In this document: in pieces, positions 47,745-60,720 of the stretch
How the letters are laid out: every line of letters begins with the position of its first letter
How positions within the stretch are numbered: the stretch's first letter is position 1
NCBI GenBank assembly: GCA_013286285.1
Contig: JABDGA010000003.1
Location: forward strand, 1 to 60,720
Source: Alphaproteobacteria bacterium
GTDB lineage: Bacteria; Pseudomonadota; Alphaproteobacteria; Rickettsiales; JABCZZ01
Direction: 5' to 3'
Length of the DNA stretch: 60,720 nt
Made by a program: the position numbers and the translations under genes
Notes under the pieces: generated by a model
What the model was told of the DNA's origin: nothing
Databases searched by the model: none
The model's input: the letters and a program-made list of their open reading frames with translations, nothing else

Positions 47745-49097
47745 TTAACGCAGCAGCTTACCACTAAGCCCACCAGTGAGGGATTCCATTATGAATTCCC
47801 GAAGACTTACTGACTTGTCATCGCGGTTACGGCGCAAAAGAGAGCCGGCGATAAATATCGTACCCAGCAGTATAAATGGTTCCAGCGGCTTGCGGTAACG
47901 ACCTTCCATCACTCCCGTCTGCTGGAACAGCATCAACAGTATCATAACGAACGCGATACACGTAATAAACATTTTAGGGCGCTCCATGCGGCACACCGGC
48001 GTAAACGCAAGGATCGCCGTGATACAGAACACAAATACCCAGCGTAGCTGCCAGTTCAAAAAATGTAATGGCCGCCCAGGATGCATATCCGAATCAGGCC
48101 AGGAAGGGCCAAACATGAAATAAATGGCGTTTTCATATATATCCTTAAGACGTTCATAGAAAGTATGCTGCTGCGCCGCTTCTCTTATGGTAATATCCCA
48201 ATCCTGCATTCCATGAGCCAAATCGATGGTGACGATATAAGGGCTCTTTATACGGTAGGAGGTATAGTTTCCCAATGGCTCCAGCGGATTAATATAAAAA
48301 GAAGAGGAAGACCAGCCATAACTCCATCTTTCCCCGGTTCTCGTATCCCACATGTCGAGCCCAAAGCTGGTGTGGCCACTGTCACGGTTAATATTCTCCC
48401 GTCCCGCGTATCCGAATGGAGAGACACTGCCCATGGCTTTGTAGGTGTGCCACCCAGCAGGCAGCGCGAACACGGTAAATAACCCCACCATACCGCAGAA
48501 TGTCTGAAATTTTCTGGGTTGGAAGGATAGCAGGTACGCCATGCCGATACACGCAACCGGCACCATCATCTGTTTGGTAAAACCAGTGATCAACCAGCAC
48601 ACCACCGCAATCATGCAGGAGGAAAGCGTCTGTTTACGCGCACTGCGAAACGTCATCCACATGGCAAGAGCCGTGGCGGGCAACACGACGGTTTCAATCA
48701 TGAAATACCCGTACATCACCAGAAACGAGGGATGCGCACCAAGTAATATAGCGTATAAAAGCCCGGTTTTGCGTGTGCAAAACTCCCGCAATGCACGATA
48801 CCAGAAATAAGGCAAGGAAGCGCACAACAAACCCGTGATAAGGGAAATGATGCTTCGGTTATTATCCGCTGCCAGCTTGCGCAGCACATATATCCATACT
48901 TGGTAAGCTTTGGGATCGGTTCCATTCCCATAGTGAGGAGACAACAGATCCGCGCCAATCTCCCAATGCGCCTTGAAATCCGACCAAAGCTGATCCACAG
49001 GATTGAAATAAAAGGGATATAAAAACCGGCATACCAGGACGCAGGCAAAAATCCATGTCAGGCATTTTTCCCATTCTAAGGACCAGCAATATTTCAC
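47745..49097 (-). CDS. Polytopic membrane protein, possible GT-C-type glycosyltransferase
   Basis: 450 aa with at least 10 hydrophobic helices and a roughly 120-aa soluble loop (GYAGRENINRDSGHTSFG...DWDITIREAAQQ). It starts 9 nt downstream of the GT2 gene in the same operon. The function is inferred from context and topology only. Confidence 0.5.
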   Translation of the reverse strand: MKYCWSLEWEKCLTWIFACVLVCRFLYPFYFNPVDQLWSDFKAHWEIGADLLSPHYGNGTDPKAYQVWIYVLRKLAADNNRSIISLITGLLCASLPYFWYRALREFCTRKTGLLYAILLGAHPSFLVMYGYFMIETVVLPATALAMWMTFRSARKQTLSSCMIAVVCWLITGFTKQMMVPVACIGMAYLLSFQPRKFQTFCGMVGLFTVFALPAGWHTYKAMGSVSPFGYAGRENINRDSGHTSFGLDMWDTRTGERWSYGWSSSSFYINPLEPLGNYTSYRIKSPYIVTIDLAHGMQDWDITIREAAQQHTFYERLKDIYENAIYFMFGPSWPDSDMHPGRPLHFLNWQLRWVFVFCITAILAFTPVCRMERPKMFITCIAFVMILLMLFQQTGVMEGRYRKPLEPFILLGTIFIAGSLLRRNRDDKSVSLREFIMESLTGGLSGKLLR

Positions 49098-49106
49098 TTT
49101 ATTTTC

Positions 49107-49811
49107 TCATCTTCTGTCTTCACGCCGGCACTTCCCGGCAAAGCTGAAAAGTTCCTGAAACGCACGCAAAATGACGCGCAGACTAGCTCCCGTGGCAACA
49201 CCTCCCTTGCGTGGAAGATGCTGCACTCCAATCTCCAGTAAAGTGCACCCTTGCTGTTTGAGTCTGTACAGCAACTCTGCGCTAATCATTGCACCACGCA
49301 TTTCGGGCGGGTGTTGATGCAAGAAGTAGGTAGGGAATAATTTAAAGGCGCAATCCACATCGCGAACCCGGATATCCAGTATCCACCGAATCAACCATTT
49401 CCACCCCCAGGCATTCAGCTTACGCATCCTTGAATCCTTTCGATCCAAACGATACCCAATCACCGCATCATATTTATCCTTGAACTCCAGCAAGAAGGAC
49501 AGATCGGCAATATCAAACTGTCCATCGGAATCCATTAAAAAAGTACGTTCTTTGGTCGCAGCGGCGAACCCCGTTGCCAGCGCAGAGCCATACCCCCGAT
49601 TACGCTCATGCGTCACCATCCTGACACGCCGCTCGGTCTCCATAATCGTGGTAACTATCGCTCCGGTGCTATCCTTGCTGCCGTCATTGACCACAATAAT
49701 CTCAAAATCCCCTGCCAGCGCGCTTAATATCTGTGTAAGCGTATCGCCGATTACCGCTTCTTCATTATACGCCGGCAGGACAACGGAAAGGCTATGGACG
49801 GGGATTATCAT
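49107..49811 (-). CDS. GT2-family polyprenol-phosphate glycosyltransferase (DPM1/ArnC/GtrB-like)
   Basis: LSVVLPAYNEE, EIIVVNDGSKDST, NRGYGSAL, FLMDSDGQF (DxD) and DCAFKLF are present. At 234 aa it has the size of a soluble-domain-only enzyme. Confidence 0.88.
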   Translation of the reverse strand: MIIPVHSLSVVLPAYNEEAVIGDTLTQILSALAGDFEIIVVNDGSKDSTGAIVTTIMETERRVRMVTHERNRGYGSALATGFAAATKERTFLMDSDGQFDIADLSFLLEFKDKYDAVIGYRLDRKDSRMRKLNAWGWKWLIRWILDIRVRDVDCAFKLFPTYFLHQHPPEMRGAMISAELLYRLKQQGCTLLEIGVQHLPRKGGVATGASLRVILRAFQELFSFAGKCRREDRR

Positions 49812-49934
49812 GAAGACTCAAATGTTCGCGCTATTTTGTGCTGGAGTATATCTTTATTCGGTTAATATTTCCTTTATTTTCTTAGAGTTCTTACACATTG
49901 ATATTTGACGCAAAAATTTAGAACATGGCAAAAT

Positions 49935-51644
49935 TCAGTATACGCAATACCACATAGCAAACATTCCGGCATTCAGAAACATCAGGGCAGAAAGCACAGC
50001 GATAACCAGCATAACGGTCCGAGGCTGTTTCAATGCACGCGCCAGCACTAAGAAACACGGCAATGCGAGTATGGAATAGCGGCCAACGGAAGACATCCAG
50101 CGTTCTGTAATATAAGCAATGCCAAGCGTTAGCGTAGCAACAACAATTTCCTCTGCAATAAGCCAACGTTTGTATATACCGAGAATCAACAATACAACGG
50201 CACTCAACCACTCTCCTTCATCGAGTAGTAAACGAGGATAAAAACCGGGATTGCGCCATCCACCGCTCGTAAAGAATTCCCATAACGGACGGAAAACCAG
50301 TAAATCTTCTATCCTGCCTTCCCCCCAGCCAAATGAACCCCACGCTTTCTGACGATCCAGAAAAAGAAATGGACTCCCATGAAACGCCCATTGATAGCAC
50401 ATGAAAAATATAAGCCCCCATGCAGAAAGCCCTGTATACATTATCATACGAAACACCCGATGTAGACAAGGCATGCCCGCATCACGCCGCCACACATGAA
50501 CGCCAACAGCAAAAGCCGCGGCAATTCCCTGAGATCGGGTAGCAGTAATCAGCCCCGCAATAGCTATCAGCCAGTATAATGGCCAGCGTTTTACAAAACC
50601 ATAGAGCAGAACAGTTAGCAGAAACAGATAAAGTGATTCGGTGTAAGTCATACGCAGGAAATACGAGGCAGGACAAAACAGCACAAACAGCAGCGCATTA
50701 TCTGCCAAATCTACACTGTCAAGCCGTATCTGCCCATAGATTCGCCATTGCCGAGCGAAAAGTGCAAGGCTTACCAACGTCACGATAAGAAGACTGAATT
50801 CTTGTGTAAACCCGGTAATTGAATATACAACAGCACCTAACAAGGGATAGAGAGGAAAAAAAACAATCGGCGAATTGTTTAGTCCTGCTTCATCATAGCC
50901 TTTTTTCATGAGTATATATTTGTACCACTGCCCATCCCAATTAGCGTACCATTCGCCGTGATAGTCAAATTCATAGCCTGTACAAGTGCCGTGCCTCAGA
51001 AACGTTACCCCCGCTACCACGCCTGCATAAACCAATAATGTACTGACCATGCATGGCAGCAACCATGGAGGTAGCACACGCCAAATGGAGGCCAGCCCAT
51101 ATGGAGTTTTGGCACTAAGTAGCCCCTCCAGAATGAGAAGAATGCTTATGGCAAAGGTTAATGCTTGCCAGAGCGGAGGCTCATATCGCACATTGATACT
51201 CGCTGGCCCTCCTGTATTCTGGAAATCGATCAATAGTGTATTATCTCCACTATGCAGCCACGCCCCCAGATCGATGACAAATCCATTCCTGTAATCGCAA
51301 AGATCGGCGGGAGGAATAGATGTCAGCGGCACGTCCACGCCATTGACCACAACCACAGTGGCACAGTCATCCGGAATAATATGCAGGCGAGTGGGCAATG
51401 ATATCATCCGGCTGAGATCCATGCGCAATGTGTATTTGTACAACCCTGACGGAAAGGGATCTGAAAACGGCAGAGAGACCGGTTTCTGCTCCGTGGCAGT
51501 ACCCATGTAAGTCGTAAGGATGCCGTGGGTGAAGAGATAACTGGGCCTAGTCATGCTGTAGACATTGAATACAAATAACACTACGCCTACGATCAGCAAT
51601 ATCCATGATGAAATGCGACAAAATCGTATGGAAAAAAACGTCAC
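49935..51644 (-). CDS. GT-C membrane glycosyltransferase candidate (PIG-V/mannosyltransferase-2-like) with an extra N-terminal extracytoplasmic domain
   Basis: WYANWDGQWYKYILMKKGYDE....PIVFFPLYPLLGAVVY resembles the WD..WY..IA..GY...FFPLYP signature of the PIG-V/GT76-like family. About 11 TM helices are present. The GTG start overlaps the upstream stop by 1 nt. Confidence 0.6.
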   Translation of the reverse strand: MTFFSIRFCRISSWILLIVGVVLFVFNVYSMTRPSYLFTHGILTTYMGTATEQKPVSLPFSDPFPSGLYKYTLRMDLSRMISLPTRLHIIPDDCATVVVVNGVDVPLTSIPPADLCDYRNGFVIDLGAWLHSGDNTLLIDFQNTGGPASINVRYEPPLWQALTFAISILLILEGLLSAKTPYGLASIWRVLPPWLLPCMVSTLLVYAGVVAGVTFLRHGTCTGYEFDYHGEWYANWDGQWYKYILMKKGYDEAGLNNSPIVFFPLYPLLGAVVYSITGFTQEFSLLIVTLVSLALFARQWRIYGQIRLDSVDLADNALLFVLFCPASYFLRMTYTESLYLFLLTVLLYGFVKRWPLYWLIAIAGLITATRSQGIAAAFAVGVHVWRRDAGMPCLHRVFRMIMYTGLSAWGLIFFMCYQWAFHGSPFLFLDRQKAWGSFGWGEGRIEDLLVFRPLWEFFTSGGWRNPGFYPRLLLDEGEWLSAVVLLILGIYKRWLIAEEIVVATLTLGIAYITERWMSSVGRYSILALPCFLVLARALKQPRTVMLVIAVLSALMFLNAGMFAMWYCVY

Positions 51645-52924
51645 TACTTTATTTTCCTTCGATTAAGAAAGCGGAAAATACCGCGCTCTTTCATCCATAA
51701 CGCATAGCTGACGTAGTCCGGGTCGCGGGAGAGGTGGATCTCCTCCGTCTTGGCGCGTAACCAATATATGCCATTCAGCATCAGCAGGGCCAGACAACAG
51801 CGCATACTTTCCCAGGCATTTCCATGCACGATGAACGGAATGGAAATCAGCCACCATGACAGATTCTTCGCAATATACGCAGGATGCTTGGTATAACGGT
51901 AAGGGCCGCCGGTAATAATCCCCCTATGGGTAAGGTTGGAAAAACGCGCTCCAAACGCGACGGTAGCCCATACGTAAACCAACACCAGCAGTAAAATCAC
52001 GCTGCCCCATGCCATATATAAAAGCGGGAATCCGGATAACCACTGTTCCCAGCCGTAACCATTGCCGTAATTCAGGTATTGCTGCCCCATCTGCGACCAA
52101 AACGGCTCATAGCATACCAATGCAACTACCCATCCCAACATCGTAGGTTCTGCAGAACGCAGATGCGTATCGGTAAGGCGCAGCGAGATAAGGTATCCCA
52201 TTGAAACCAAGCCTACGTCTACAAAATAAAACGCATCCGAGAAAAAGTGGTAGTACGCAGGAAAGCCGGACAGAGAATGGGAAGAGGACGCAAGTATCCA
52301 TTTAAGATCATTACAAAAATAAGTAAACATCAATGGCAAAAAATACCCTTTAATCAACCAGCCGGTCAGATGCTGCCTGAGAATGGCGAAGTCCACCTGC
52401 TGCCATTGCAGCATCACCGCTTTTCCCATATGCCAGTAGCTGTCCTGAGGGACACGCATGATACGGTCTATAAGCACAATATAGGGAATAGAAGCCAGAA
52501 CCCATACCGGCAGGACAAACTTCAGCATCCGATAATAATTATCGTAGAATGCGCCATGGTATTCAGGAAACACCCAATAAAGCAGCCCGATAAAGGCGAA
52601 GCTCCCCAGCAGCCCGATAAATTTGCACAGGCTTCTGCTCCAGGATAAATTATGGCGGGAAAAATCAAGCCCCGTGGTTCCACGGCGGTGGACATTTTGC
52701 CAAGGAAGATCCATAGAAAAAATTGCCGCGGCGGTGAAAAGCAACACAAAAAGCGCGGAGTATGCAATATTAGGAAACGGGTTGCTTTTGTATAGTATGG
52801 CTACAGAACCGATGAAGGCGGCTGCCCCGGCAAACGCGGTCCAGCCATTCGTGGCGGAGGGAGGAAGCGTCCGGGTAGGTTTGGAACTATCAGATCTACT
52901 CATAAGGTTGGCAGGAAATCTCAT
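51644..52924 (-). CDS. Polytopic membrane protein with a C-terminal ICMT/PEMT-type methyltransferase domain
   Basis: 426 aa. The C-terminal THRGIITGGPYRYTKHPAYIAKNLSWW matches the isoprenylcysteine carboxyl / phospholipid methyltransferase family motif (GPY.y.RHP.Y). Confidence 0.65.
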   Translation of the reverse strand: MRFPANLMSRSDSSKPTRTLPPSATNGWTAFAGAAAFIGSVAILYKSNPFPNIAYSALFVLLFTAAAIFSMDLPWQNVHRRGTTGLDFSRHNLSWSRSLCKFIGLLGSFAFIGLLYWVFPEYHGAFYDNYYRMLKFVLPVWVLASIPYIVLIDRIMRVPQDSYWHMGKAVMLQWQQVDFAILRQHLTGWLIKGYFLPLMFTYFCNDLKWILASSSHSLSGFPAYYHFFSDAFYFVDVGLVSMGYLISLRLTDTHLRSAEPTMLGWVVALVCYEPFWSQMGQQYLNYGNGYGWEQWLSGFPLLYMAWGSVILLLVLVYVWATVAFGARFSNLTHRGIITGGPYRYTKHPAYIAKNLSWWLISIPFIVHGNAWESMRCCLALLMLNGIYWLRAKTEEIHLSRDPDYVSYALWMKERGIFRFLNRRKIK

Positions 52925-53064: not shown

Positions 53065-53104
53065 TCATAAAACTTTAACAATTATATAGTATACTGATTA
53101 CAAT
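53065..53104 (+). promoter_or_regulatory. AT-rich promoter-like element conserved upstream of both Cys-rich genes (copy 1)
   Basis: tcataaaactttaacaattatatagtatactgatta aligns without gaps to 56311-56346 (27 of 36 identical by my count). It contains TTAACA (53075-53080), an 18-nt spacer, then TACAAT (53099-53104). The ATG at 53171 is preceded by gggag. Confidence 0.3.
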
Positions 53105-53170
53105 CAAAATAGTAGGCTGGTAATATAGTCAGCCAGAATACACATACGCCGTGCGCAAGGGAGAATCGTC

Positions 53171-54583
53171 ATGACAAAAAGCAACCCATCGTCAAAAAGC
53201 AAATTCCGCACGCTGTGTACCTCTTTAGCACTTGCTACGTTGCTATTTTGTGTTCCCACGACCCTGTTTATCTATGGCGGCAACGTGTTCGCCCCCTCCA
53301 CCGCTCAGGCGGCTCCTACTATCGGTACTCTTCTGAACGGAAGCTCCAGTGGTGGAGGCAACCAGCCACAATGCTTGAAAGTTGACACAACAACAGGCGC
53401 AAGCACAGTAATCACATGCCCATGCCCGTCCTCACTATCTAACACCCAAACGTGCGCGCCATGCTCAGATCTAGATCCCAGCCTCTGTGTCAATAGCCCA
53501 GGCACTGGCAGCAGCAGTGGTGGCAACAATAGCAACAGTGACGCGGATGCGTGCGCAAACCTGACACTGGCGGATGCCACTAATTGCGGCCTGACCAATG
53601 ATAAAAAAGGAACGGGGGTATTTTGCGGTCAGGACAAAACCGGCCCTGGCGGCGACGGTAAATCGGATAATTGTGGCATGGGGGGCAATATAGGCACGCT
53701 GTATAAATGTTCATGCCCCAATGGCATAGGTGCCGGCAAGTGCACCACGTCAGTAGTGCAGGTTTGTAATCCCAATCCTTGCCAGGTAGTGATGGGCGCG
53801 GGTAATCCCGATGCGTGCGGGGCAGCTGGTAATGGTAGCGGTGGGGGCAATGGCAGCAGCAGTGGAGGTGGTAATGGCAGCAGCAGCGGTGGCGGGGCAC
53901 CGAAATATACGGGGCATTGTGATTACGACCAAGATGCAAGAGGCGTGTATCATTGTGTGTGCACAGTCCCGTCAGGCATGTCTTGTACAGCTTTGGGAGG
54001 AATCATACCTACTAATGACCCCTCACGTGACGGTCAGTGTGAATTGGCCGGCAGTAATTGTGACTGCGCAAATCCAAGCAAAAAAATCTGCAATACTTCA
54101 GGCAGCAGTAGTGGAAGCAGCAGTAGTGGCGGTGGCAACCAGTCGAAATGTCTGACAACTGACACAACAACAGGCGCAACCACGATAGGCGCATGCCCCT
54201 GCCCGTCATCACTACCTAACACAAAATCTTGTGCCCCATGTTCAGATTTAGATCCTAGTCTTTGTACAAATAGTCCAGGCGGTGCTCCGGATGGCGACAC
54301 TTGCCATGCTACAATTACCAACCAGAGCGGTAGCGCCAGCGTGGCCGGACAATGCTCTGGTAACAATAACTGCATAAATTCGCCCGATACAATTTCTGTG
54401 GAGACAACAGGTGATTCAAGTTGCGCGAATGGATTCTGCTGTCATGGTGCACCATTCTCAGATTGTTGGTACGGACAGTTTGGTGGCCCAGCATCGGATT
54501 GCAGATGCAAGAATAATTATTCTGGTTGTGCTCCAACTTTTGGTGCTGGAGGATGGTCTTGCCCACCAAGCGACTGTCCATAA
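53171..54583 (+). CDS. Secreted modular Cys/Ser/Gly-rich protein (no recognised family)
   Basis: 470 aa. It has a signal peptide (LALATLLFCVPTTLFIYGGNVFAPSTAQA). At least 5 Cys-rich modules are separated by SSSGGG / GNGSSSGGGNGSSSGGG / SGSSSGSSSSGGG linkers. One roughly 52-aa module is repeated (see repeats). RBS gggag. Confidence 0.8.
   Translation: MTKSNPSSKSKFRTLCTSLALATLLFCVPTTLFIYGGNVFAPSTAQAAPTIGTLLNGSSSGGGNQPQCLKVDTTTGASTVITCPCPSSLSNTQTCAPCSDLDPSLCVNSPGTGSSSGGNNSNSDADACANLTLADATNCGLTNDKKGTGVFCGQDKTGPGGDGKSDNCGMGGNIGTLYKCSCPNGIGAGKCTTSVVQVCNPNPCQVVMGAGNPDACGAAGNGSGGGNGSSSGGGNGSSSGGGAPKYTGHCDYDQDARGVYHCVCTVPSGMSCTALGGIIPTNDPSRDGQCELAGSNCDCANPSKKICNTSGSSSGSSSSGGGNQSKCLTTDTTTGATTIGACPCPSSLPNTKSCAPCSDLDPSLCTNSPGGAPDGDTCHATITNQSGSASVAGQCSGNNNCINSPDTISVETTGDSSCANGFCCHGAPFSDCWYGQFGGPASDCRCKNNYSGCAPTFGAGGWSCPPSDCP
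53348..53503 (+). repeat. Intragenic 156-bp direct repeat, copy A
   Basis: It encodes SGGGNQPQCLKVDTTTGASTVITCPCPSSLSNTQTCAPCSDLDPSLCVNSPG. It aligns without gaps to 54125-54280. Confidence 0.85.
54125..54280 (+). repeat. Intragenic 156-bp direct repeat, copy B
   Basis: It encodes SGGGNQSKCLTTDTTTGATTIGACPCPSSLPNTKSCAPCSDLDPSLCTNSPG. Length and frame are the same as copy A. Confidence 0.85.
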
Positions 54584-54606
54584 ATATAACAAAACAATTA
54601 TTTATT

Positions 54607-56199
54607 ATGACAACGAATTTCCGCAACATATGCATGCGGTTCATCTTTCTGGCGTTAGTAACGCTATCACTGACTGATCCATTGTTAGCAGCTAACAATG
54701 GGTCATTCGCCGTATGCCCGTGCGTGAATGTCTATGCAGGCGTTCCGGGCAATTGTCCTTCTATGGAGCCGCTAGCTATGGCGGTATATCACACCGGCCC
54801 AAGCGTAGCATATAATACCAGCCGCAGCATGAGCCTTTTTCTCCGTGATGGTAATGGCTATCTGGAATCTGTTTCCCAGATGGCTCCCAATGCAACTTCA
54901 TGGGGGAGCGCTAACTGGCAAAACCTAAAGGGTAGCTTAAACAGTGATCCGGTCGCTATTTCTCGTAAGGGAAGTAATCTGGAGGTATTCTATATCGGAT
55001 TTGACGAAGCTGTATGGCATATCCGGCAGTTGCCAGGCAGTACGAAATGGGGCGGCCATGCCATCATTGGCGGCGCTGTCGGCGGCCAGGTAACCGTGGC
55101 ATATATTCCCGCTTCGGACAGCGTACAGCTCTTCTATAAAGGGGATAATCAATCACTGATGACGATTACGGAGAACAATGGTAGCTGGGGTAAACCCGTT
55201 GCACTCCTCCCGGCAGGCTCTGTCGCCAGCAATGTCGCCAGCATCGATGTCGGTGGCAACCGTTACCTCTTCTTCCGAGGAAATGACGGAAGCCTGAAAA
55301 TTGTATCACTCATGCCAGGCTCTACTATGGCAAGCGCTCCCGCTGCCCTCACCCCCCCCTGGACAGTGGATAGCAACCTCACACCTATTCTAGACGCAAG
55401 CGGCAATATCATCGTATTTTACCGGGGACCTGATTATGCGTTATGGAAGGTTTCTTCTGCCGGAAGCACAGGCTGGGAACGCCCGCTTTCGCTGGGAGGC
55501 AGGGCCAGCAGTGACCTCTATGCCACCCTACTTCCCGGCAAGCAGATACGCGTATACTACCGCGCAACCGACGGAGGCGTGTATTATGTTCAACAGGACA
55601 AGGGCACTACTGTGGGATGGAGCAAACATAAACATCTGCTCGGCGTATCAGCAAGCGTGAAGAATTCTTCTGGGGCAACGCTTTTGAGCCAGACGCTCTT
55701 TAGCAATCCAGTGACTGGCATTAATCCTGATGGACGACAGGAAGTCTTCTATATCGGCAGTGAAGGCGCTCCGTGGCATATGTGGGAAACGGCAGCTTCC
55801 TCATCCGGGCAACCCTATCCAGTCTGGACTTCCCAAGCGGCGCTCGGAGGCGTAGGAAGCGCTCCGCGCGGCAATAGCATTATCGCAACGGCCATTACCA
55901 GTGCCAACCCCATAGCATCTTACACCGCGCTGGATGCTGCCACGATATACGATATTATTGGCAATGCACCATTCTTCGAGACATGTTCCACATTCCCCAC
56001 CCCTACTATCGGATTTAATCATCCATTGCCGGATTGCAACAACGTACCAATGATCAGCCGTGCGATGGGTATTGCCTTACTGATAGACGACATTCAAACC
56101 GCAATAGCCTCTGTGAAAGCCAGTACAACCGGCTCAGTGACGCAGGCACAATTTGACGCCTTGATTAAAGCGCAACTGACAAAGATGGGTATTTTGTAA
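54607..56199 (+). CDS. Secreted seven-bladed beta-propeller protein (lectin-like, PLL/DUF346-style repeats) with a conserved C-terminal ~100-aa domain, paralogue 1
   Basis: The start is ATG 54607, giving a signal peptide (MRFIFLALVTLSLTDPLLA). There are seven repeats of about 45-55 aa with strand pairs such as LEVFYIGFDEAVWHIRQ, VQLFYKGDNQSLMTI, RYLFFRGNDGSLKIV, IIVFYRGPDYALWKV, IRVYYRATDGGVYYV and QEVFYIGSEGAPWHMWE. It starts 24 nt after the Cys-rich gene. Confidence 0.8.
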   Translation: MTTNFRNICMRFIFLALVTLSLTDPLLAANNGSFAVCPCVNVYAGVPGNCPSMEPLAMAVYHTGPSVAYNTSRSMSLFLRDGNGYLESVSQMAPNATSWGSANWQNLKGSLNSDPVAISRKGSNLEVFYIGFDEAVWHIRQLPGSTKWGGHAIIGGAVGGQVTVAYIPASDSVQLFYKGDNQSLMTITENNGSWGKPVALLPAGSVASNVASIDVGGNRYLFFRGNDGSLKIVSLMPGSTMASAPAALTPPWTVDSNLTPILDASGNIIVFYRGPDYALWKVSSAGSTGWERPLSLGGRASSDLYATLLPGKQIRVYYRATDGGVYYVQQDKGTTVGWSKHKHLLGVSASVKNSSGATLLSQTLFSNPVTGINPDGRQEVFYIGSEGAPWHMWETAASSSGQPYPVWTSQAALGGVGSAPRGNSIIATAITSANPIASYTALDAATIYDIIGNAPFFETCSTFPTPTIGFNHPLPDCNNVPMISRAMGIALLIDDIQTAIASVKASTTGSVTQAQFDALIKAQLTKMGIL

Positions 56200-56310
56200 G
56201 CCAAGGCTGTCAATATAAAAAGATATATCATCGTCTTAGTATCTTTTACCTTCCAAAAGCATACGCCCTTAAAACTGTCAGGCACTTTCCGAAAAGGAAT
56301 GTGTTTACTG

Positions 56311-56349
56311 TCATAAAGAATTAATAATTATATGGTATATTATTAATAT
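56311..56349 (+). promoter_or_regulatory. AT-rich promoter-like element conserved upstream of both Cys-rich genes (copy 2)
   Basis: tcataaagaattaataattatatggtatattattaa matches copy 1. It contains TTAATA (56321-56326), a 17-nt spacer, then TAATAT (56344-56349). Confidence 0.3.
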
Positions 56350-56379
56350 AACTATAAAAACAGTTCTTTAGAAAATTTT

Positions 56380-57793
56380 ATGCTGGCCGGGCTATTCTCA
56401 GGATACAGGTTATACAAATTTTACTCCGCTTTGATGTTTGCGGTCGTGTTATTTGGCGCTCCTATATTCTACCCCACTTCTGTTTTCGCTGATGAATGCG
56501 CGGGGGTACAGATAAACGCACATTGCGGCTTAACTAATGGCAACACCGGATCGGGTAAGTTTTGCGGCAATGACTGTGGCGTCGCTGGTAACAATAATAC
56601 GCTTTATACATGCATCTGCACCAGTCCGGGCAACTGCCATAATGATCCTAATCCTAAAAACCCACCGCTAAACTGCAATCCCTGCATTCGGTATCCCGAT
56701 TCATACCAGCCCGATATGTGCGTACATCCGACCGTAGCAGCAACCCAACCGCCTGTCTCAAGAATCCTGCCGGTGCAGGAAATTCATGCGCCGCGGACGG
56801 GGGACAATGCATGACAAGTGAGTCATGTTTAAATAATATTATCATGCCAACGTCCAGCTCCAGTGGAGGGACTGGAAGCTGGAGTGATTGCAACTCTCCT
56901 AACGTATGCTGCACAACAACGGCGGCACCTATCTGCACCCGTAGGGGAGATACTCAAAACTGTATTTGTACGGGCAATGTTAACAACAGCTGCGCGTTCT
57001 TTAGTGATCTGGGCGGATGGCAATGTCCGGATGGCCCCAACACTTGTGCTCCTCTTAACAGCAGTAGCAGCAGTGGTGGGGGAAGTGGTAGCAGCAGCGG
57101 TGGTAATGGGAATGTTGCTACACCAACATGCGCATTAGAAGATATTAACTCAGGCGCAGTTGTACAAACAGGGCTATCCTGTTATGATAGTCCGTGTTAC
57201 CCAGCCCCAAGCCCTTCGCCAAGGCCGTCCACACCGCCATCGGCGCTACCGTGGAGGTCGTCAAGCGCAACGAACTCCATACCTTCGCCCTCATTCCAAA
57301 ACGATGGGTCGTCGAACGCTCTTTCGCCTGGCTCGAAAAATGTAGAAGACTCTGGAAAAACTGCGAACGGAAGATCAATGCCAGTCTCAATATGGCCGTC
57401 CTCGCTTTCCTGGTTTTGATCCTAAAAAAATCGTGAACAGGCTCTAAGAGCAGCACTCTGCCGGATAATTCCTGCACGTCGCTCAACCAGCAATTTGGCG
57501 GCAATGACTTTGCCTGCCTGCCTCGGCCAGCCTGCGAAGCCCATGGTGGAGATGCAATAAGCGTGGGAGGATGTTCAAACGGCTGGGTATGCTGCGAAAC
57601 CAATGCCTGTACAATGCTGGGCACTTATGCCACTTGCGAAACAAAGAGCGCATGTGCAAATGGATATGACGGGTTTGATGTCAGGTACGGCAAACCTGTA
57701 ACCTCTGACCCTGCAGCCACGGCTTGCAAAGGCAACCAGATATGCTGTGATTGTCCTACATGTAAACTACAGAGTCCGCGTCCGCTTCCATAA
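56380..57793 (+). pseudogene. Second Cys/Ser/Gly-rich secreted protein gene, disrupted by a frameshift and an IS5-family remnant
   Basis: Homologous Cys-rich reading continues across three frames. 56380..56814 has a signal peptide and CGLTNGNTGSGKFCGND...TLYTCIC, like 53171 paralogue residues CGLTNDKKGTGVFCGQD...TLYKCSC. The 56718..~57196 frame carries the SSSGG linkers and ...GGWQCPDGPNTCAP. The ~57448..57793 frame reads ...GGCSNGWVCCETNAC.... The frame switch occurs somewhere in 56658-56814. Confidence 0.65.
57197..57444 (+). mobile_element. IS5-family transposase 3' remnant (C-terminal ~80 codons plus element end)
   Basis: It translates to ...PFAKAVHTAIGATVEVVKRNELHTFALIPKRWVVERSFAWLEKCRRLWKNCERKINASLNMAVLAFLVLILKKS*, the characteristic C-terminus of IS5-family DDE transposases (RWVVERxFAWLxxxRRL). 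It is visibly GC-richer than its flanks. The sequence ends ...gaacaggctc followed by taa. No 5' part of the IS is present. Confidence 0.75.
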
Positions 57794-57831
57794 CTTCAAT
57801 TTCTTACAATGCTTATTAAGAAAGATCTATC

Positions 57832-59439
57832 ATGATAAAAGCATTACCAGGAAGTAGCTTATGCACGATGATAAGCACTCGCCTGTTGCTAGCAACGTTG
57901 TTGCTTTGTATGGAGACCAACAACAGTCATGGCGACAATAGCAGCGACCTTTTTCCGGTATGCCCGTGTTCTGATGTGTATGCAAGCACCCCTGGCAATT
58001 GCCCCTCTATGGAGTCTGTGGGTATGGCCCAGTACCAGACAGGGCCAAGCATAGCCTATAATACCAACCATGGCATGATGCTATTTATCCGCGATGTCAA
58101 CGGCTACCTGGAATATGCTCCCCTGACAGGGACTAGCTCAGGGCCTGCCGATTGGAAAAACCTATATGGCAGCCTGAACGGCGATCCGGTGGCCATCTCC
58201 CGCAAAGGTGGGAATCTGGACGTATTTTATATCGGCCTGAACGAAGGAATATGGCACGCCAGGCAATCCTCTGGGCAATGGGGAGGTCCCTTCTTCATCG
58301 GCGGCCATGCAGGCGGTCAGGTTACCGTAGCGTACAGCGCCGCTTCAGACATGGCGCAGCTTTTCTATAAAGGCGATGACCAGTCACTGATGACGATTAC
58401 CCAGCCTGGAAACAATGGAACATGGGGCAAGCCCGTCGCAATACTCCCGGCGCAGTCCGTCACCAGCAACATCGCCAGCATTGATGTCGGCGGCAACCGT
58501 TACCTGTTCTTCCGCGGTATGGATGGCAGCCTTAAAGGGGTAGCGCTTACGCCCGGTTCCACTGCAGCAAGCGCTCCTGTCACTCTGACAAAGACCTGGG
58601 CAGTAACCAGTAATATATCACCGGTGCAGGATGCATCCGGTATCACCCTATTCTATCGCGGCCCGGATTCGGCGCTGTGGGAAGTACCCTCGGCAGCGGG
58701 AAGCTGGGCACAGCCGCTTTCTCTGGGCGGCAGGGTCAGTGGCGATCCGGTCGTGACCACATTACCCGGCGGACGGATACGCGTCTATTACCGTTCTACT
58801 GATGGCGGCATATATTTCGTGCAGCAATCTCAGAGCACCGCGAGCACTACCCCCTCATGGAGCAAACACCAGCATCTACTGGGGGTATCGGCAAACGCCA
58901 AGGATTCTTCAGGCGCAACGCTTCTCAGCCAGACCATTTTTAGCAACCCGGTGATTGGTATTAATCCCGATGGAAGACAGGAGGCGTTTTATGTCGGCAA
59001 TGAGGGCGCGATGTGGCATATGCGAGAGGGGGCAGCATCTTCGCTCAGCCAACAGTATCCGGCATGGAGTCCACAAACCTCGCTGGGATATATAGGACTT
59101 GCAGCGCGGGGCAACAGCATTATTGCGGCAACTCTGACCGGCACGCAGCCCATAGCGTCCTATACTGCGCTCGATGCAGCCACAATATACGACATCATCA
59201 ACAACGCACTATTCTTCAATACGTGCCTTGCAAATCCTACCCCTCTTATTGGATTTAATCATATGCTACCAAGCTGCGATGGCATACCGATTATCAGCCG
59301 CGCGATGGGTATTGCCTTATTGATAGACGACATCCAGACAGCGATAAACGCCGTCAAAGCCAGCACGAAAGGTTCCGTCACACAGGCACAATTCGACACC
59401 TTGATTAAAGCACAATTGAAGAAAATGGGGATTCTTTAA
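57832..59439 (+). CDS. Secreted seven-bladed beta-propeller protein, paralogue 2
   Basis: 535 aa, collinear with 54607..56199: the same CPC..VYA..PGNCPSME N-terminus, the same blade motifs, and a near-identical C-terminal tail (ISRAMGIALLIDDIQTAI..VKAST.GSVTQAQFD.LIKAQL.KMGIL). An alternative start is at 57868. Confidence 0.8.
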   Translation: MIKALPGSSLCTMISTRLLLATLLLCMETNNSHGDNSSDLFPVCPCSDVYASTPGNCPSMESVGMAQYQTGPSIAYNTNHGMMLFIRDVNGYLEYAPLTGTSSGPADWKNLYGSLNGDPVAISRKGGNLDVFYIGLNEGIWHARQSSGQWGGPFFIGGHAGGQVTVAYSAASDMAQLFYKGDDQSLMTITQPGNNGTWGKPVAILPAQSVTSNIASIDVGGNRYLFFRGMDGSLKGVALTPGSTAASAPVTLTKTWAVTSNISPVQDASGITLFYRGPDSALWEVPSAAGSWAQPLSLGGRVSGDPVVTTLPGGRIRVYYRSTDGGIYFVQQSQSTASTTPSWSKHQHLLGVSANAKDSSGATLLSQTIFSNPVIGINPDGRQEAFYVGNEGAMWHMREGAASSLSQQYPAWSPQTSLGYIGLAARGNSIIAATLTGTQPIASYTALDAATIYDIINNALFFNTCLANPTPLIGFNHMLPSCDGIPIISRAMGIALLIDDIQTAINAVKASTKGSVTQAQFDTLIKAQLKKMGIL

Positions 59440-60152
59440 GCCACGTCTTTGACTTCTTCCACAATGACTTCCATGCGGTAGCCGATGCCCAGCTCGGTGA
59501 CAATATAGATGGGCTTTGCCGGATCCGGCTCGATTTTCTCACGCAACTGGCTGATATAGACGCGCAAGTACTGCATATTGTCTACATGCGCCGCACCCCA
59601 GACGTCCTTAAGAATCTGCTTATGCGTAAGTATCTTGCTGCGGTTGATAATCAGATAGCGCAGGAGATCGTATTCACGTGGGGTGAATACCGCCTTCGTA
59701 CCATTGATGAACACCTCGTGGCGTACCAGATCCATACGGATATTGCCGTTGACCAGATCCGGCTCACCGCCTTCGTGCGTGGCAGCCTTGCGCAGGTTCG
59801 CATAAATGCGCGCGAGCAAAACGTCCGGGTTAAACGGCTTGGTAACGTAGTCGTCTGCACCCACTTTCAACGCATTAACGATTTCCTCGTCCTCATTACG
59901 CACCGAGCAGATGATAATAGGGGTTTGCGACCATTCGCGTATGCTCGCGATCACCTCCTTACCATCTATGTCCGGAAGTCCCAAATCCAGCAATATGAGA
60001 TCCGGACGTACGGAAGCGGCGAGCCGGACCCCTTCCCTGCCGTTATCGCATTCCACCACCTTGTATTCCGCTGCTTCCAGCACGATATTGAGGAGCTTGC
60101 GGATAGGCGGCTCATCTTCAATAATGAGTATGGTATTTTTCTTCTGTGTCAT
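59436..60152 (-). CDS. kdpE: OmpR-family response regulator, KdpE-like
   Basis: REC (ILIIEDEPPIRKLL...ILLDLGLPDIDG) plus winged helix. The tail is KdpE-like (REYDLLRYLIINRSKILTHKQILKDVWGAAHVDNMQYLRVYISQLREKIEPDPAKP..IVTELGIGYRM). The convergent overlap with the propeller gene is 4 nt. Confidence 0.8.
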   Translation of the reverse strand: MTQKKNTILIIEDEPPIRKLLNIVLEAAEYKVVECDNGREGVRLAASVRPDLILLDLGLPDIDGKEVIASIREWSQTPIIICSVRNEDEEIVNALKVGADDYVTKPFNPDVLLARIYANLRKAATHEGGEPDLVNGNIRMDLVRHEVFINGTKAVFTPREYDLLRYLIINRSKILTHKQILKDVWGAAHVDNMQYLRVYISQLREKIEPDPAKPIYIVTELGIGYRMEVIVEEVKDVA

Positions 60153-60275
60153 AATCAGTGCTATCCATCAATTTTGATCGGATTCTACAGGCAGCAATCC
60201 TACCGGGCAACTAAAATAAGCAGATTCCAGCCATTTTAATATCCATCTCGCCATAAAGAATCTGACGATACCTTT

Positions 60276-60720
60276 TTATTCGTTAATCAATTCAGCCTGC
60301 ATCACGTCTGTGCGCCCGGTAGTGAATGCCGCTATGGAACTGGCAAGGTACATGCGCCACATACGGATAAAACGGTCATCATACCCCAACGCGCGTACTT
60401 CCCGCTCATGGTTATTGAAATTCTCCAGCCACCGGTTAAGCGTAATAACATAATTCTGACCGAATGCGAACATCTCACGGCAGGTTAATCCTGCTTTTTC
60501 CGCCAGTTCCCGGAATAGCGGCTTCGGCGGCAGCACACCACCTGGGAAAATATACGTTTCGATAAAACCGTTTTTTCCGTGAGTGCGCTCAAACACGTCC
60601 GGATCGATGGTGATGCATTGCACCATCGCCCTGCCTCCGGGCTTCAAGCGTGCTTTTACCGTATCAAAATAGATCGGCCAGTATTCTTCGCCGACATGTT
60701 CAAACATACCAATAGAAACG
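60276..60720 (-). CDS. cfa: Cyclopropane-fatty-acyl-phospholipid synthase (5' end beyond window)
   Basis: The frame stays open to the window edge (..VSIGMFEHVGEEYW...). YIFPGG.LP, ...RMWRMYL and the rest are typical of the CFA synthase C-terminal half. Confidence 0.9.
   Translation of the reverse strand, partial: VSIGMFEHVGEEYWPIYFDTVKARLKPGGRAMVQCITIDPDVFERTHGKNGFIETYIFPGGVLPPKPLFRELAEKAGLTCREMFAFGQNYVITLNRWLENFNNHEREVRALGYDDRFIRMWRMYLASSIAAFTTGRTDVMQAELINE

Follow-up and report, generated by a model that had tools for sequence, protein, structure and literature searches.

In this study, we analysed a window of 60,720 nucleotides (nt), comprising positions 1 to 60,720 of contig JABDGA010000003.1, which is assigned to a member of the Alphaproteobacteria (Rickettsiales; JABCZZ01) and was assembled from a soil metagenome run. 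Close to its right end the window contains two two-gene pairs in tandem, all on the plus strand, in each of which a gene for a cysteine-rich (Cys-rich) exported protein is followed by a gene for a beta-propeller protein. We refer to the two pairs as CysA-PropA and CysB-PropB. A scan of open reading frames (ORFs) recovered the four genes at the coordinates given by an earlier reading of the letters alone (hereafter the original prediction), and its claim that a two-gene module is present twice is borne out. CysA (53171..54583) is intact and encodes a protein of 470 amino acids with a putative signal peptide and 44 Cys residues. PropA (54607..56199) encodes 530 amino acids when counted from its ATG and consists of a putative signal peptide, a Cys-containing N-terminal segment (N-segment), a PLL-type propeller and a tail. 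CysB (56380-57793) is broken and present in three pieces, while PropB (57832..59439) is an intact gene for a protein of 535 amino acids with the same architecture as PropA. The predicted gap of 38 nt between CysB and PropB (57794-57831) is correct; that between CysA and PropA (54584-54606) measures 23 nt instead of the predicted 24 nt.

The propeller of PropA spans approximately residues 60 to 415 (54784-55851) and is composed of seven blades, as had been predicted and as is now seen in an AlphaFold2 (AF2) model and in a blade alignment. The original prediction did not recognise its family, yet the propeller clearly belongs to the PLL/PHL lectins, a family that has been characterised. A profile of seven family members matched PHL in the PDB with an E-value of 1.3e-43 and PLL and PLL2-5 with E-values of 1e-36 to 1e-41. 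Comparison of the AF2 model with the PDB using Foldseek retrieved PLL (5c9l) with an E-value of 6e-26 and a TM-score of 0.87, the TM-scores for PLL and PLL3-5 being 0.87-0.89 at 25-27% sequence identity. Precomputed Pfam assignments place PF26607 (Beta-prop_PLL) on all of the close homologues, and the NCBIfam entry beta_propeller_lectin is matched with an E-value of 1.6e-14. The predicted local distance difference test (pLDDT) values of the model range from 70 to 90 across the blades and drop below 50 for the tail. Other PLL-type propellers sit on GH18 and RHS/YD proteins.

Members of this family possess a hydrophobic sugar pocket with two Trp residues between the blades, such as Trp199 and Trp214 in PHL (PMC5584973). 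Only blades 2, 5 and 7 retain the stacking (first) Trp, the other four having a different residue at this position; the second Trp survives in six of the seven blades, and the sugar-bonding Thr of the PLL/PHL pocket is replaced (by F, P or S). Judging from this alignment, about three PLL-type two-Trp sugar pockets may survive in the propeller. The N-segment that follows the signal-peptide-like start has a conserved core of the form PC...PGxC, and the common F.VCPC..PGNCPSME segment described in the original prediction is seen in the alignment of PropA with PropB.

Beyond the propeller, PropA carries a tail of about 115 residues (residues 416-530; 55852-56196), in keeping with the roughly 100 residues of non-propeller sequence predicted earlier. 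No family had been recognised for the tail either, but it contains a fragment of a glycoside hydrolase family 24 (GH24) phage lysozyme. In PropA, the GH24-like segment runs from TIGFNH to QFDALIK (55999..56166, plus strand) and the protein ends 10 residues later. PF00959 (Phage_lysozyme) matches all seven family members, with a best E-value of 7.5e-6; against the tail alone it scores 23.8 bits (cut-off 22.3) and covers only profile positions 17-72 of 125. A profile search of the PDB matched the endolysin 8hp8 (E 2.6e-6) over chain residues 33-87. The alignment by hhalign with a canonical phage GH24 endolysin (viral contig L010:2869-3552) covered residues 29-83 of its 227 residues, from WTIGYG to TQAQFDALVS. 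The part that aligns with GH24 begins past the EFEG...YRD catalytic segment and stops short of the C-lobe.

The catalytic triad of T4 lysozyme is formed by E11, D20 and T26, and a full GH24 fold has two lobes and takes up about 125-160 residues. Across the seven members, no Glu upstream of TIGFNH is conserved, and the position equivalent to T26 varies (T/L/V/M/V/H/F). Every member ends 10-11 residues past the QFDAL helix, where the canonical enzyme runs on for more than 60 catalytic-domain residues, and the invariant residues of the tail include D443, D494 and D495. These alignments suggest that the tail is a strongly conserved vestige of a muramidase which retains only the central ~55 residues of the domain and is very probably not an enzyme. 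Since the catalytic Glu/Asp/Thr segment and the whole of the C-lobe are missing, it is likely to be a structural or docking part.

PropA and PropB are collinear from end to end. In the BLASTP alignment 348 of 503 residues are identical (69%), and the identity over a global alignment is 66%, which agrees well with the two thirds estimated by eye in the original prediction. The codon comparison that it had proposed gave a nucleotide identity of 69%, a synonymous divergence (dS) of 1.68, which is saturated, a nonsynonymous divergence (dN) of 0.23 and a dN/dS of 0.14. Because dS is saturated, the duplication is old, and both of the propeller copies are under purifying selection. The last ~50 codons had been described as nearly identical at the DNA level, which does not hold: the last 149 nt (56051-56199 versus 59291-59439) are 80% identical, with 20 of the 29 differences at third codon positions. 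The proportions of synonymous and nonsynonymous differences in this segment (pS 0.70, pN 0.07) make the tail the most constrained part of the propeller protein. Gene conversion at the 3' ends was considered and ruled out on account of the 80% DNA identity, the predominance of third-position differences and the lack of a conversion tract; the 3'-end similarity is due to purifying selection. The tree of the seven propellers is star-like and without resolution, PropA and PropB being no closer to each other than to the homologues from other metagenomes.

The duplicated unit also includes an upstream block of ~50 nt, located on the plus strand at 53065..53113 for pair 1 and at 56311..56364 for pair 2, and the two copies align with each other. 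The core, AATTATATRGTATA, is confined to these two blocks, which gives two occurrences in the window where 0.03 would be expected. In the first copy the block overlaps a promoter-like site of the sigma-70 type (TTAACA, 18 nt, TACAAT) at 53075-53104, which lies within it. The motif of the upstream block was not found at related loci.

In CysA, where Gly and Ser together account for 29% of the residues, the Cys-containing modules are connected by Ser/Gly linkers. Their order is X1 (53372-53488), a domain which we call CGL (53552-53818), a degenerate CGL-like module (53918-54091), X2 (54149-54265), V (54302-54442) and Z (54437-54580), all on the plus strand. In CysB, the order is CGL, V, Z and a cut X, followed by a fragment of an insertion sequence (IS) and two further V modules. 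The partners share modules in differing order and number, and the proposal that they evolve by module shuffling is supported. A direct repeat inside CysA (53348-53503 and 54125-54280) comprises X1 and X2 together with a GGGNQ lead-in; 30 of 39 residues are identical, the DNA identity is 78%, and this repeat arose later than the cassette duplication. CysA matched no family in Pfam or NCBIfam, and no full-length homologue was found among 5.8 billion proteins, where a word-index search with the CGL region gave only CysA itself. The V modules show a six-Cys spacing, C-x5-9-C-x5-C-x9-20-C-x4-6-CC, that is similar to that of beta-defensins. Peptides of that class pair their six Cys residues as C1-C5, C2-C4 and C3-C6. 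The V-module profile gave a weak match to crotamine, which has the beta-defensin fold (E 0.012, 19 bits), and we take it as a lead only.

The CGL domain is about 80 residues long and follows the pattern C..L.L...CGL...G.G.FCG...C....G..TLY.C.C...C...C....PD.C in CysA. It is the leading module of CysB and of the partners at two related loci, L001 and L002, and the alignment of these domains contains nine invariant positions, six of which are Cys. An AF2 model of the CysB domain has a pLDDT of 81, and Foldseek found no match for it in the PDB or BFVD at E <= 0.001. A profile search among 1.84 billion representative proteins yielded about 11 credible members. Among the remaining matches, P0021, P0023, P0024, P0030 and P0032 were treated as spurious matches of the G.Y.C type, their Pfam assignments being Ig, NHL, Kelch or other repeats; P0028 was judged spurious, being of the same repeat type by eye, and P0034 was provisionally treated in the same way.

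The same search led to a 50-residue repeat with six Cys residues (CPxGxGLYCGGxGVxGDxxTLYxCxxGxLxVxQxCxxGCxxMPxGTxDxC), which forms tandem arrays of 4-11 copies in P0022, P0025, P0035, P0018 and P0031. It follows a CHAP peptidoglycan amidase domain in P0022 and P0025 and an NAGPA phosphodiester glycosidase domain in P0035 (all above the Pfam cut-off), and eleven copies are present in P0018. Comparison of CGL with this repeat by hhalign gave a probability of 98% and an E-value of 2.5e-13 over 48 columns, with a common framework of GxYCG...TLYxC...QxC..GC...DxC, bearing in mind that the repeats had been found with the CGL profile and that their selection is not independent of this comparison. Neither CGL nor the 50-residue repeat has a Pfam family or a match in the PDB by sequence profile, and a literature search for a Cys-rich repeat behind CHAP domains returned nothing relevant. 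The repeat is probably an undescribed cell-wall-binding repeat. CGL is also found fused to a type IV secretion system (T4SS) pilin (PF18895) in P0029. P0019, P0026, P0027 and P0033 contain CGL in proteins with Thr/Pro linkers and dockerin-like or SdrD_B-like parts, two of them with dockerin-like ends, and by eye these four proteins and P0029 resemble proteins of ultrasmall bacteria of the candidate phyla radiation (CPR) type. The relationship of CGL to a repeat associated with CHAP and NAGPA and its presence on a T4SS pilin make it most likely that this domain binds a glycan of the cell surface or cell wall.

The propeller-with-tail subfamily is represented by five other sequences among the 5.8 billion proteins, at 63-72% identity. 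Scans of 185,579 species genomes and of Joint Genome Institute (JGI) metagenome contigs contained no member and gave only distant propellers of 27-29% identity, without the tail or a Cys-rich neighbour. A gene for a Cys-rich exported protein is located 17-180 nt upstream of the propeller gene at all three of the other informative loci (L001, L002/L003 and L004), and the flanks are unrelated, containing ribBA and MarR genes at L001, a sulfotransferase and Tn7-like genes at L002 and short ORFs at L004. At L005 an IS1-like gene lies upstream of the propeller gene, and at L006 the propeller gene is frameshifted and truncated by the contig end. In P0006, a CGL domain is fused to the N-terminus of the propeller in addition to the upstream partner gene. 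P0020 has a PLL-type propeller (PDB PLL with E 2e-27; 24% identical to the PropA propeller) with a C-terminal CGL domain, and its upstream regions are weakly CHAP-like (Gsp amidase, E 0.16).

Since the propeller and Cys-rich components occur as neighbouring genes and also as fusions at either terminus, these arrangements give good evidence that the two work together, as the conserved pairing had suggested in the original prediction. The outcomes that would have spoken against it were two well-characterised families with independent functions, or homologues that are never adjacent elsewhere; the Cys-rich partner belongs to no known family, and homologues elsewhere do lie side by side. Genes of mobile elements are located near related loci, namely Tn7-like genes of the TnsA/TnsB/TniB type at L002 (10423-14426), an IS1-like gene at L005 (80-523) and HTH_7 genes at L006 (1289-1758). 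Together with the IS5-type fragment in the window, they hint that the cassette resides in variable, mobile regions.

The second pair is decaying, its Cys-rich gene being frameshifted and cut by an IS fragment; the original prediction had already called this gene decayed. The 5' ORF of CysB (56380..56814, 144 amino acids) encodes a putative signal peptide and an intact CGL domain (56497-56721), after which it runs out of frame to a stop at 56814. The single frameshift lies near 56720-56760 and is unchanged in the Logan contig from the same run. The middle part (56718..57208) continues in a second frame with a V module (56787-56912), a Z module (56907-57053), a Ser/Gly linker and an X-like module (57129-57197) that is severed by the IS fragment at 57208/57209. 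The fragment itself (57209..57450) is a 5'-truncated, putative element of the IS5 family, whose members have a transposase of the DDE_Tnp_1 type and terminal repeats (DDE_Tnp_1, E 2.4e-8; DDE_Tnp_1_2, E 1.1e-6). It represents the 3' end of the element and codes only for the C-terminal ~80 residues of a DDE transposase. Downstream of it, the 3' remnant of CysB (57473..57793) contains two V-type modules (57473-57595 and 57608-57748) and a stop in a third frame. All of these pieces are on the plus strand. A match of NACHT_sigma on CysB (E 0.006) is far below the cut-off and was dismissed as chance.

The IS fragment is repeated in the metagenome, one contig entering it from a longer transposase and another leaving it into unrelated DNA. 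Such branching implies that the same sample holds fuller copies of the element. The Logan contigs of the source run, an independent assembly, break at this repeat, with branch points in their graph at 57209 and 57445-57450, a left contig (40831-57238) of mean k-mer depth 54.6 and a right contig (57416-60720 and beyond) of mean k-mer depth 13.5. The link of the 3' half of pair 2 to the rest is therefore tentative, depending as it does on a repeat of 237 nt. It is conceivable that the tandem layout is partly an assembly artefact, in which 57416-60720, carrying the CysB 3' remnant and PropB, comes from another copy, locus or strain and has been joined via the IS repeat. The exact position of the breaks (57209-57450), the branching of other contigs there, the difference in depth and the fact that the two propellers resemble homologues from other metagenomes at least as closely as they resemble each other would all fit such a join.

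The step in depth is, however, not specific to the junction, since contig depth varies between 3 and 76 across the window, and we rejected it as decisive proof of chimerism. The mean depths of the Logan contigs over 20900-60720 are 75.6, 10.4, 8.7, 3.3, 6.2, 16.4, 28.3, 54.6 and 13.5; many contig breaks fall between 29260 and 40830, and the region 20900-60720 may be a strain mosaic or hold mis-joins. Moreover, the left contig by itself spans CysA and PropA as well as the second promoter block and the 5' portion of CysB, so that a second upstream block and the start of a second Cys-rich gene already follow PropA on that side. To the left of the break the sequence stops within a Cys-rich gene, and to the right of it Cys-rich modules come first and then a propeller gene, exactly as one interrupted pair would give. 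On this evidence, we regard a join of unrelated halves as unlikely.

How could such a cassette function? We tentatively favour, as somewhat more probable than not, an exported, non-catalytic, multivalent pair for the recognition of glycans or cell walls that acts on other cells, for which ligand class, interaction and role are inferred. The two genes form a cassette that was duplicated long ago and whose products are putatively exported by the Sec route. The first gene encodes a fast-shuffling string of small disulfide-knotted modules on Ser/Gly linkers, headed by the CGL domain. The second encodes a PLL/PHL propeller that has acquired a signal peptide, a short N-segment containing disulfides and, at the C-terminus, a GH24 vestige, of which only the central hairpin and helix segment is retained and which most likely serves as a structural or docking tail. 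After export, both products would act together as a complex that adheres to or agglutinates other cells; the propeller would contribute about three intact two-Trp sugar pockets to it, and the Cys-rich partner variable modules and specificity.

Several points weigh against this interpretation. The signal peptides were assigned by eye. With four of the seven blades lacking the stacking Trp, the ligand may be something other than a PLL-type sugar. The tail is modelled poorly (pLDDT <50), and structurally it might still form a non-canonical active site. The subfamily is tiny, and with seven propellers the adjacency rests on few independent events. The partner at L004 is Cys-rich but lacks the CGL domain, which would be compatible with a loose partner requirement; the requirement may be for a class of Cys-rich protein rather than for one domain.

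Another reading takes the neighbouring genes into account. Directly upstream of pair 1 and divergently transcribed, a minus-strand operon of four membrane or glycosylation genes (47745-52924) encodes a PMT_2-like GT-C protein (47745-49097), a protein similar to GT2 polyprenyl-phosphate sugar synthases (49107-49811), a 569-residue membrane protein without a family match that is taken as GT-C-like in this reading (49935-51644) and a 426-residue membrane protein with an ICMT/PEMT-like methyltransferase end (51644-52924). The pair could accordingly belong to a self-directed system of surface glycoprotein and lectin, in which this operon glycosylates, and perhaps O-methylates, the Ser/Gly linkers of the Cys-rich protein and the propeller binds the resulting glycans, building a surface layer. 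The preference of PLL lectins for fucosylated and O-methylated sugars would suit this arrangement, and linkers rich in Ser and Gly would be plausible sites of O-glycosylation. However, the operon is not beside the pair at L001, L002 or L004, where only the two-gene module is conserved, and the linkers are rich in Thr and Pro, not in Ser and Gly, at L004 and in the CPR-like CGL proteins. We therefore consider a self-directed surface layer to be an unlikely function.

Alternatively, the pair could be a two-component antimicrobial, in which defensin-like or knottin-like modules are released from the linkers of a Cys-rich polyprotein and the lectin propeller targets the envelope of a competitor. 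The defensin-like spacing of the V modules and their weak crotamine match speak for it, as does the association of CGL-type repeats and PLL-type propellers with CHAP, GH18 and RHS proteins; a fast turnover of modules would also be typical of conflict systems. Nevertheless, the crotamine match is cysteine-driven and lacks significance, the locus shows neither processing sites nor an immunity gene or a dedicated exporter, and the lysozyme part is vestigial, which makes an antimicrobial role rather doubtful. A bolder version of the recognition pair appears quite unlikely as a whole: an exported heteromeric lectin in which the half-lysozyme would be a docking platform for a hypervariable Cys-rich partner, CGL would be a new disulfide-rich wall-binding fold and the V modules would be bacterial beta-defensin-like modules, together forming a diversifying system for the recognition of, or attack on, microbial envelopes. 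It is highly improbable that the propeller protein is an active lectin-guided muramidase whose GH24-like tail is completed by upstream tail residues (an invariant Y..LDAAT motif) or by the partner, because, in spite of the many invariant residues of this most conserved part of the protein and the apparent frequency of fusions between lectins and wall hydrolases, a family-conserved Glu is missing upstream of TIGFNH, the T26 equivalent is variable and the protein stops where the C-lobe should start.

The proposed recognition pair can be compared with four known systems. In the PLL family of Photorhabdus (PLL, PLL2-5 and PHL; PF26607; 5c9l, 5mxe, 6rfz, 6t96 and 8q81-83), the seven W-motif blades are homologous to those described here, and the two-Trp signature of the pocket appears to be kept in three of our blades, the other four being without the stacking Trp. 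Five PLL genes lie side by side in P. laumondii, much as the paralogues in the window do, and PLLs have no signal peptide (PMC12203525). In contrast, PropA and PropB have a Sec signal peptide (judged by eye), a Cys-containing N-segment, a GH24-derived tail of 115 residues and an upstream or fused Cys-rich partner, and they belong to a bacterium from a soil metagenome, not to an insect pathogen. With the GH24 lysozymes and endolysins (PF00959; 8hp8 mtEC340M and 6h9d), the tail shares the central ~55 residues, from the TIGYGH hairpin to the LTQxQFDAL helix, by homology; its N-terminal catalytic segment is not alignable, its C-terminal lobe is absent and the Thr equivalent is variable.

The 50-residue repeat associated with CHAP is, like CGL, exported and disulfide-rich, and the CGL core aligns with it. 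Unlike the repeat, CGL has an additional N-terminal Cys pair (C..L.L...C) and often two more Cys residues in the middle of the domain, and it occurs singly in a protein rather than in arrays. Lectin-guided cell-wall hydrolases, in which a PLL-type propeller is combined with an M23, lysozyme-like or GH18 domain, are also exported and have the same propeller together with a domain derived from a wall hydrolase, and such fusions appear to be common. The cassette described here has a shortened and apparently inactive hydrolase part, and a separate Cys-rich partner is conserved. The propeller family is thus already known; what is new is the constrained, truncated lysozyme, the Cys-rich partner as an obligatory component, the CGL domain and the CHAP-associated repeat related to it.

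To our knowledge, PLL-family lectins have been studied only as stand-alone Photorhabdus proteins. The cassette represents a rare environmental branch of this family, in which an exported propeller carries a strongly constrained fossil half-domain of a muramidase and is always accompanied by Cys-rich modules, either in a neighbouring gene or by fusion. It offers a clean example of a catalytic domain that has been cut down and retained for another role. The CGL domain and the 50-residue repeat are candidates for a new class of cell-wall-binding module, and such modules would be of use for lysin engineering and for understanding cell recognition by CPR and soil bacteria.

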